Assembly (NCBI GenBank): GCA_965262915.1 | Contig: OZ253564.1 | Location: 1,728,001-1,792,000 of the forward strand | DNA from: Candidatus Spongiisociaceae bacterium | GTDB lineage: Bacteria > Actinomycetota > Acidimicrobiia > Spongiisociales > Spongiisociaceae | DNA length: 64,000 bases | Direction: 5' to 3' | In this document: positions 2,638 through 3,870 of the stretch, piece after piece | Numbering within the stretch: the stretch's first letter is position 1 | Layout: every line of letters begins with the position of its first letter | Notes under the pieces: model-generated | Databases searched by the model: none | What the model was told of the DNA's origin: nothing | What the model saw: the letters and a program-made list of their open reading frames with translations, nothing else | Program-made: the position numbers and the translations under genes

Positions 2638-3870
2638 GTGTCGGGGAATCGGGTTGATGTGTTCGGTGGGGTTGATACCCATCGTGACACCCATGTAGCG
2701 GCGGTGGTGGATACTGCTGGTCGCCTGTTGGGGTCAGAGTCGTTCGCAGCGGAGGGAGCTGGGTATCAGCGGTTGGTCGCCTGGCTGGGATCGCAGGGAC
2801 ATCTGGTCCGGGTCGGGGTAGAAGGAACCGGTAGTTACGGCGCCGGGCTGGCCCGCTATCTGACCGAGGCCGACATCGAGGTGGTGGAGGTGAACCGGCC
2901 GAACCGCCAGCTACGCCGCCAGAAGGGCGGGAAGTCTGACAGCGTCGACGCCGAGGCAGCAGCTCGGTCGGCCGCCTCGGGCCAAGCAACCGCAGTTCCC
3001 AAGTCCGGTGACGGTCCGGTCGAGTGCCTGCGGATGCTGCTGGTGGTCCGCCGCTCCGCGGTCAAAGCCCGCACCCAGGCCGCCAACCAGATCCACTCTC
3101 TGGTGGTTACCGGCCCTGAGCAGGTCAAACAACAGCTAACAGGCATGAATCTCAAAGCCCAGGTCCGAGTTTGCGCCCGGTTCCGACCCGGCACAGACCA
3201 CACCACCACCGCCTACGCGAAGCGTGCCCTGCGGCATCTGGCCCGCCGATACCAAACCCTCGACACAGAGATCGGCGAACTCGACACCGAGATCAGAGGC
3301 CTCTGCGCGAAGGCGAACCCGGCGCTGCTGGCGGCAGAAGGTGTCGGTCCTGACACAGCCGCCGCTTTGTTGGTCGCAGTCGGCGACAACCCCGGGCGTA
3401 TGAAATCGGAACGGTCCTTTGCGGCGCTGTGCGGCACCAGCCCCGTCCAGGCATCATCGGGACAGACCATGCGGCATCGTCTCAACCGGGGCGGCGACCG
3501 GCAAGCAAACTGTGCGCTGTGGCGCATCGCTACCACCCGGATACGCCACGACGCCCGCACCAAAGACTACGTAACCCGACGCCAGACCGAAGGAAAGAAC
3601 CGAAAAGAGATCATCCGCTGCCTCAAGAGGCACATCACCCGAGAAATATACCGACTCATCACTAACCCGCCACCAACCCCGAACTGCGCGAAGCTGCGCA
3701 CCCTACGCCAACAAGGCGGCATCACCATCACCCAAGCCGCCCACGCTCTCCGAACCCACCCTGCCCGCATCTCAGAAATCGAACGCGGCCGAGACCACAA
3801 CCACCAGCTCGCTACCCGATACCAGAACTGGCTCCGAACCCACCAACCCGCCCCACCATCATCGATTTGA
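2638..3870 (+). CDS. IS110 DEDD recombinase with C-terminal XRE-like HTH
   Basis: GGVDTH, VGVEGTGSYG and KSDSVDA (DEDD), SPVQASSG (Tnp serine), HRLNRGGDRQAN. C-terminal LRTLRQQGGITITQAAHALRTHPARISEIERG. GAGGAGG RBS before GTG 2638. Confidence 0.93.
   Translation: MSGNRVDVFGGVDTHRDTHVAAVVDTAGRLLGSESFAAEGAGYQRLVAWLGSQGHLVRVGVEGTGSYGAGLARYLTEADIEVVEVNRPNRQLRRQKGGKSDSVDAEAAARSAASGQATAVPKSGDGPVECLRMLLVVRRSAVKARTQAANQIHSLVVTGPEQVKQQLTGMNLKAQVRVCARFRPGTDHTTTAYAKRALRHLARRYQTLDTEIGELDTEIRGLCAKANPALLAAEGVGPDTAAALLVAVGDNPGRMKSERSFAALCGTSPVQASSGQTMRHRLNRGGDRQANCALWRIATTRIRHDARTKDYVTRRQTEGKNRKEIIRCLKRHITREIYRLITNPPPTPNCAKLRTLRQQGGITITQAAHALRTHPARISEIERGRDHNHQLATRYQNWLRTHQPAPPSSI

Follow-up and report, generated by a model that had tools for sequence, protein, structure and literature searches.

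Two insertion sequences (IS) of the IS110 group, elements A and B, lie in a 64,000-nt stretch of the genome of a Candidatus Spongiisociaceae bacterium (contig OZ253564.1, positions 1,728,001 to 1,792,000; hereafter the window), and the genes of both encode bridge-RNA-type IS110 recombinases that are extended by a proline-rich linker and a folded, basic C-terminal helix-turn-helix (HTH) domain of the XRE/Cro-C1 type (Table 1). We regard these proteins as a real, conserved variant of a known recombinase, and no description of an HTH on an IS110 recombinase was found in the literature, judging from titles and abstract openings. The extension, referred to below as the tail, had been noticed in an initial annotation, which reported the pattern LR..R...GIT.TQ.A....TH..RIS..E.G in both proteins and placed it at 3680-3870; the pattern is present letter for letter in both translations, and the interval correctly spans the last part of the linker, the whole HTH and the stop codon.

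The longest open reading frame (ORF) of gene A covers 2590-3870 on the forward strand (426 aa from the first TTG), and the start codon is likely the GTG at 2638, which is preceded by GGAGG and gives a protein of 410 aa, the length of cluster P0004 (98% identical to protein A, 53 member sequences). Proteins A and B were identical at 323 of 401 positions in BLASTP (81%), with no gap through the tail. Pfam recognised PF01548 (5.6e-26; 91.8 bits against a cut-off of 29) and the Tnp domain PF02371 (6.5e-20) in protein A, and the NCBIfam equivalog NF033542 matched residues 10-343 of 410 with 209.2 bits (cut-off 140). Across 51 relatives, D13, E62, D101 and D104 were invariant or almost so, S273, S274 and G275 were invariant, and P344, P346 and P348 of the linker were almost invariant. 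S274 and G275 aligned (HMMER) to the S-G of the IS621 ESGSS stretch, of which the catalytic Ser-Gly pair is S241 and G242 according to passages of PMC11208158.

Passages of Durrant et al. (PMC11208160) give IS110 recombinases as proteins of about 300-460 aa with two domains, and passages of the same paper and of PMC11208158 present bridge recombinases as three-domain enzymes in which site choice resides wholly in the bridge RNA; for IS621 the domains are RuvC (1-122), coiled coil (123-188) and Tnp (189-326) (PMC11208158). The statement in the initial annotation that characterised IS110 recombinases consist of RuvC-like, coiled-coil and Tnp domains only holds, because the NCBIfam model ends at residue 343 and IS621 ends at Tnp; the profile of the present family likewise matched IS621 (1.7e-20) and ISCro4 (3.9e-19) only as far as profile position 343, leaving the tail over. 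Like IS621 and ISCro4 (PDB 8wt6 and 9t56), the window proteins possess a DEDD RuvC-like domain, a coiled coil and a Tnp domain with a Ser-Gly catalytic loop, and their elements, as far as the sequence can tell, resemble those two in having a presumed guide RNA region upstream of the gene, a core of 2 bp and a promoter logic that depends on the circle. Whereas the two characterised enzymes end with Tnp and come from Enterobacteria, the window proteins add the linker and an HTH of about 52 residues and belong to Actinomycetota.

The tail is, in our judgement, very probably a genuine XRE/Cro-C1-type HTH domain, a view based on profile matches and predicted structure. Hidden Markov model searches, named as a check in the initial annotation, placed both HTH_31 (PF13560; 27.2 bits, cut-off 27.0) and HTH_3 (PF01381; 25.2-25.3 bits, cut-off 23) above the Pfam gathering cut-offs over residues 368-402 of the 426-aa reading, marginally in each case, and matches at E <= 0.01 were obtained in 48 of 51 relatives for HTH_31 and in 38 of 51 for HTH_3. 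AlphaFold2 predicted four confident helices in the tail (350-359, 364-370, 375-382 and 389-401 in 410-aa numbering; predicted local distance difference test, pLDDT, 82-91 here and 82-93 over this and the tail-only model) within a full-length model of mean pLDDT 86.9 (51-sequence alignment), and the tail folded by itself gave the identical four helices (pLDDT 81.5; 61-row alignment). When the tail model was compared with the PDB using Foldseek, the matches listed were almost all XRE/Cro-C1-type domains, including ClgR, C.BclI, SinR, C.Esp1396I, HipB, DdrO and HigA2, together with the N-terminal domain of MuB (2mqk, rank 13), at probabilities of 0.9-1.0 and template modelling (TM) scores of 0.5-0.65; the E-values of only 0.05-0.7 are as expected for a tail of about 55 residues. 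The family profile, searched against the PDB, matched ClgR, the ICEBs1 Xre regulator, DdrO, HigA2 and HipB over positions 344-392 (E 0.002-1), and the nearest ESM Atlas clusters (0.83-0.90), which we treat as leads only, were HTH_3/HTH_31 and Transposase_20+HTH_3 fragments from Actinomycetota. The fold and the positions LRxxR, (I/L)T, A and (I/L)SxxExG are thus shared with XRE/Cro-C1 domains (HTH_3/HTH_31; ClgR 3f51, SinR, HipB, DdrO), but these are free-standing regulators or N-terminal domains, whereas here the domain, known from sequence and model, is a C-terminal appendage of a recombinase. Two tails modelled as a homodimer scored 0.04 against a mark of 0.42, which counts neither for nor against dimerisation.

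Two trivial explanations were rejected. A chance or wrong-frame artefact is contradicted by the Pfam matches in relatives, the predicted fold and ratios of non-synonymous to synonymous change (dN/dS) below 1, and a separate small gene joined through mis-annotation is contradicted by the single stop-free frame in all 22 full-length genomic copies and in relatives.

Among 50 distinct tails, L1, R2, R5, S27, E30 and L47 of the HTH were invariant and A16, G32 and Y43 almost so; the tails were basic, with a median isoelectric point (pI) of 11.2 and a median net charge of +4, and the HTH aligned without gaps in 57 of 59 tailed sequences. The tail is under purifying selection that is weaker than the selection on the core: dN/dS in the tail was below 1 in 17 of 18 phylogenetically separate pairs, and the summed ratio of non-synonymous to synonymous differences (pN/pS) came to 0.59 in the tail, from 656 differences of the first kind and 383 of the second, and to 0.36 in the core. 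The comparison between copies that had been suggested in the initial annotation gave, within the genome, dN/dS values near 0.2 in the core and of 0.28-0.80 in the tail (rows with copies c15, c16 and c18 excluded), and these values together with the pN/pS figures indicate a tail that is constrained, but less so than the core. We also observed that synonymous change in the sponge-associated clade was lower in the tail than in the core, and that the tail-coding strand and the DNA just past the tail (window 3650-3950) are strongly enriched in C and A (GC skew -0.44 to -0.50, AT skew +0.28 to +0.48); the first third of gene A has a GC skew of about +0.28.

The 5.06-Mb single-contig genome contains 56 matches to protein A, including 22 full-length copies that represent at least six subfamilies at 70-100% identity. 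The tail is kept in every one of the 22, one of which carries an in-frame tandem duplication inside it, so that the retention first remarked upon in two diverged copies holds across the genome and, as described below, in 52 of the 71 rows of the tree. The copy with the linker/HTH duplication is the first of two tailed IS110 genes that stand in tandem outside the window (C1:4464233-4466825); the second has no left end and begins right at the right end of the first.

Beyond this genome, a word-indexed protein search returned at least 120 relatives that reach 71% identity or more and are typically 409 aa long, many of which were already labelled PF13560 or PF01381 in precomputed annotation. The 72-residue tail alone, compared with 1.84 billion cluster representatives, gave 166 matches at E <= 0.001 (33 at E <= 1e-10). 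Nearly all of the 150 listed were full-length IS110 proteins, or C-terminal pieces continuing from Tnp, and came from both tailed clades described below; the remainder comprised a handful of long, repetitive proteins plus three short ones bearing two or three HTH-like stretches each, and these 150 included no family of free-standing regulators. Mapping back onto protein A indicates that, among the 150 listed, the close kin of the tail are other IS110 tails only. Tails were also matched on 14 plasmid records by tblastn (Arthrobacter 5, Paenarthrobacter 4, Streptomyces 3, Rhodococcus 1, Mycolicibacterium 1), ten of which were annotated merely as 'IS110 family transposase'; plasmid pTC2 of Paenarthrobacter aurescens TC1 carries a tailed gene of 421 aa.

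A scan of one genome per species yielded 80 loci. Tails extending 65-105 residues past the CLKRxI motif were found in Acidimicrobiia, of which many are sponge-associated lineages to judge by record titles, and in Arthrobacter, Pseudarthrobacter, Cryobacterium, Pseudoclavibacter, Rhodococcus and Antricoccus, whereas proteins from Streptomyces, Catenulispora, Microbispora, Nonomuraea, Rubrobacter, Chloroflexota and some Acidimicrobiaceae end 14-31 residues past this motif. The tailed proteins form two clades, one of Acidimicrobiia and one of Micrococcales/Rhodococcus. In a maximum-likelihood tree of the core only, built from 71 of 82 sequences (L024, L038, L045 and L068 were left out for internal stops, L034 and L071 as short, and L013, L026, L057, L064 and L080 as the anchor motif was not found), 52 rows were tailed and fell into two groups, each beside tail-less proteins, with two changes of state. 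A single tailed clade was rejected by an approximately unbiased (AU) test (p = 9.8e-5), which was run after the tree had been inspected; L018 was placed with the tailed rows and left out of the count of changes. Damage within the 53 rows of the tailed clades was confined to a truncated tail in L018 and a 7-residue deletion in the HTH of L033. Patchy loss in relatives, which the initial annotation had regarded as speaking against a functional domain, is therefore seen in part: tail-less proteins are interleaved with tailed ones on the tree, but the domain is kept within the tailed clades.

Since the tails of the two groups match one another and, among the 150 matches listed, no other family, the sequences suggest that the tail arose once in an actinobacterial IS110 lineage and was then lost in some members or moved by recombination between elements; two independent captures seem unlikely. 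The existence of close relatives without a tail, in Streptomyces, Streptosporangiaceae, Rubrobacter and Chloroflexota, implies that the core reaction does not need it, and their interleaving with tailed proteins marks it as dispensable for the basic reaction.

The ends of the elements provide the context in which a role for the tail can be considered. Exactly the same 1530-bp stretch is common to three genomic copies of element A, and its target was recognised as AAGAACA-CA-ACG from an uninterrupted paralogue of the host gene and from a third, unrelated insertion site; this sequence recurs at two independent sites of A, the flanks of which have nothing further in common. In public runs X1 and X8 there are contigs in which 2355 is followed directly by 3886, with 1530 bases missing and two letters shared at the joint; these correspond to an exact empty site, on sides of only 24-28 letters at 90% likeness. 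A second joint in the same runs (3689-3766, skipping 76) most likely reflects a diverged paralogue and not a deletion. Element B (insertion site at window 32761-33000) and its close kin lie 9 bp inward of the right end of an ISL3-type element, of which the genome contains about 17 occupied and about 25 empty ends, the empty form having CTGAAATCC directly followed by GATGAGCC. The cores of element B differ, being CA on the left and CG on the right, as if exchange had come after the shared C.

Within the left-end non-coding region, the block that follows GGGTCTGAC varies by subfamily and is identical to the left target flank (AAGAACA in A and CTGAAATC in B), and the left-end blocks look as the target and donor guides of a bridge RNA should, judging from their letters. 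No Rfam family matched positions 1500-4500 at E <= 1. The proposal in the initial annotation that the HTH compensates for short guides was not borne out: the left guide block corresponds to 7-8 bases of target flank and is not visibly reduced, a reading that involved no numerical comparison with IS621. The four public runs consist of contigs only, and strand, ends and levels are for this reason not readable from them. A 177-nt contig from sponge metatranscriptome run X19 covers 2407-2583 at a depth of 86.8, compared with 3.1 for its only other contig on this stretch, in the coding region, which hints weakly at an abundant left-end RNA, as contig depths cannot rank the parts of a gene; no RNA-library contig in the four runs covered the tail. 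In X17, possibly an RNA run, one contig starts at 2356, the left edge of element A.

When the right end was joined to the left end in silico, TTGACA-N17-CATAAT resulted in both A and B, whereas the integrated copy has no complete sigma-70-like promoter on the forward strand; a promoter is thus predicted to be assembled at the circle junction of both elements. With this predicted promoter, site-specific insertion at a 2-bp core and no terminal inverted repeats, the elements agree with the IS110 group. A junction promoter, which according to the initial annotation the HTH may autoregulate, is indicated by the sequence, but it is not tied to the HTH. A stop codon within TTGAC at the right end was found at 41 of 50 tailed and 12 of 19 tail-less loci. 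The tail-less relatives (Streptomyces, Microbispora/Nonomuraea, Rubrobacter and Chloroflexota; L039, L048, L050, L059 and others) are 52-57% identical in the core and likewise have the stop codon within TTGACA followed by ATAGGAGCAT, with a donor-guide motif about 90-140 nt ahead of the start codon, a position alike in the tailed and tail-less groups; they differ in ending shortly after CLKRxI with no HTH. An alignment of the upstream regions of 67 elements (MAFFT, viewed in part) showed identical conserved blocks in tailed and tail-less members. In effect, the HTH is an added piece that separates the Tnp domain from an element end which is conserved in other respects.

The fold, charge and family of the tail, in part predicted, point to binding of double-stranded DNA. 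The three core domains suffice for IS621, for ISCro4 and for relatives without a tail, which makes the tail necessarily auxiliary, and we propose that it would act as an accessory module for binding double-stranded DNA, outside the catalytic and RNA-guided core. It would most likely hold the recombinase on the DNA of its own element, at or near the junction of right and left ends where the split promoter is joined, and in that position it could assist in donor circle capture, in keeping the junction promoter's output low, or in both. Taken whole, with the role included, this account is the one we favour, tentatively, and we would stop a little short of calling it probable.

Several observations weigh against it. 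Relatives that lack the tail branch among tailed ones in the core tree, and the right end (TTGACA, then ATAGGAGCAT) is identical in them, so that neither the right-end sequence nor the promoter requires an HTH. Purifying selection is clearly weaker on the tail than on the core. The residues that precede the invariant Ser, singled out as the start of helix 3 by analogy with the phage 434 repressor, are not the same in all subclades (HPAR, YPSR, WPTR, WPSI, SLGK), which argues against one conserved site. The Pfam scores for the HTH barely exceed their cut-offs, and Foldseek gave no PDB match of the tail model at E <= 0.001. No binding site was recognised: the donor guide ATAGGAGC was the only 8-mer shared by the two ends in A as well as in B, and element A contained no operator-type inverted repeat, only one 10-nt pair in the coding region with no evident meaning.

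A more specific form of this proposal, which we think possible but unlikely, is that the HTH would constitute a second, protein-encoded layer of DNA recognition over the RNA guiding, reading a site in the junction region of its own element that co-evolves with the third helix and coupling donor capture to shut-off of the junction promoter. If true, nature would here have fused a DNA-binding domain to an RNA-guided recombinase in a way that adjusts its directionality or fidelity.

Domains of the XRE/Cro-C1 type typically act as repressors, and the tail might instead be a dedicated autorepressor without a part in recombination, its operator lying over the junction promoter or over a weak left-end promoter so that synthesis of bridge RNA and recombinase is shut off. 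The nearest solved relatives (ClgR, SinR, C-proteins, DdrO and HipB) are in keeping with this, as is the predicted formation of the strong TTGACA-N17-CATAAT only on circularisation in both A and B, with no complete forward-strand promoter in the integrated copy. Yet neither the junction nor the left end has a palindrome or repeated site, the promoter halves are also present in tail-less relatives, and the 150 tail matches listed of 166 included no free-standing tail that could act in trans; we hold dedicated autorepression to be rather improbable.

The tail might also bind DNA with little sequence preference beside the roughly 14 bp of target or donor specified by the RNA, raising affinity or helping bending and making recombination more efficient, a reading to which we likewise give a low probability. 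The very basic character of the domain (median pI 11.2), a helix 3 start that varies on a conserved scaffold and the flexible proline-rich linker are all compatible with such a binder, and the two independent sites of A, which share only AAGAACA-CA-ACG, show no extra sequence requirement in the flanks. However, only two independent sites of A are available for this comparison, and the residues of the third helix are conserved within subclades, which would be needless for purely unspecific binding.

Least probable, and in our view very unlikely, is that the tail does not bind DNA at all: its partner would be the bridge RNA, a second protomer or a protein of the host, or it would be a relic in decay, retained since its coding DNA forms part of the right end. 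The relaxed selection relative to the core (pN/pS 0.59 against 0.36), the tail-less lineages, the in-frame duplication in one genomic copy and the 7-residue deletion in L033 agree with this, and the lower synonymous change in tail than in core in the sponge-associated clade and the coding-strand GC skew (-0.44 to -0.50), a hint of constraint on the DNA or RNA itself, fit in part, but 17 of 18 pairs have a tail dN/dS below 1, the core positions of the HTH stay invariant across an overall divergence of about 45-50%, the fold is confidently predicted, and only L018 (truncated) and L033 (short deletion) are damaged among the 53 tailed-clade rows.

The favoured account, in which the tail would hold the recombinase on the DNA of its own element, has counterparts elsewhere. 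Serine resolvases and invertases carry a C-terminal HTH, and in these enzymes, as in the N-terminal domain of MuB (2mqk), a small HTH on a recombination protein serves to hold it on DNA, a likeness that we offer as analogy. In resolvases, however, the HTH is the main device of site recognition, whereas in the window elements the site is probably set by the guides of the bridge RNA, and neither resolvases nor MuB have homology to the tail past the general HTH fold.

The surroundings of element A add several observations. Its host gene occupies window 1597-2355, with the C-terminal part resuming at 3888 and running to about 3990, and looks frameshifted (ORFs 1597-2133 and 1952-2542). The nested pair of element A in an IS110-family host gene occurs twice in the genome, and near genome position 698,100 there is an uninterrupted paralogue with 85% identity. 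A C run followed by a G run, downstream of the disrupted host IS, forms a perfect G/C hairpin or palindrome (window 4028-4052), and a 522-aa ORF on the reverse strand (window 4435-6003) adjoins the nested IS elements; this end of the window appears to be an insertion-sequence cluster.

Table 1. Positions of elements A and B and of their genes, domains and end features in the window.
Feature	Position	Strand	Description
IS110-group element A	2358..3887	+	1530 bp including one 2-bp core CA; inside another IS110-family gene
CA core of element A	2356-2357 (left), 3886-3887 (right)		
-10-like hexamer CATAAT	2360..2365	+	Half of the predicted split junction promoter
Left-end non-coding region, presumed bridge RNA	2366..2637	+	Guide blocks matching target and donor
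Putative target-guide block AAGAACA	2441-2447		Left end of element A
Putative donor-guide block ATAGGAGC	2542-2549		Recurs at the right end
Recombinase gene A	2638..3870	+	410 aa; DEDD RuvC-like, coiled-coil, Tnp, linker, HTH
Proline-rich linker of A	3655..3684	+	TNPPPTPNCA, residues 340-349 of the 410-aa protein (translation)
XRE/Cro-C1-type HTH of A	3685..3840	+	Residues 350-401; Pfam, AlphaFold2, Foldseek and weak PDB profile matches
-35-like hexamer TTGACA	3867..3872	+	Right end; contains the stop TGA (3868-3870)
IS110-group element B	31285..32762	-	About 1475 bp plus core; 9 bp inside the right end of an ISL3-type element
Recombinase gene B	31301..32530	-	409 aa; nine near-identical copies genome-wide
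XRE-type HTH of B	31328..31483	-	Residues 350-401 in A numbering; ungapped alignment with A, pattern present

Precomputed Pfam annotation already shows the architecture, and public records have contained genes of this kind for years; the terms HTH and helix-turn had 0 occurrences in the article texts of 10.1101/2024.06.21.599552, PMC11208160 and 10.64898/2026.08.14.744561. The significance of the finding is bounded by this visibility, by the working of the core enzyme without a tail in relatives and by a role for the tail that is inferred only. Within these bounds, the tailed recombinases represent a conserved natural fusion of a predicted DNA-binding domain, present in dozens of actinobacterial genomes and on plasmids of cultured Paenarthrobacter and Arthrobacter. 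They provide a natural precedent for engineered fusions, and a ready test case for an extra layer of recognition or for built-in regulation in this family of RNA-guided recombinases.

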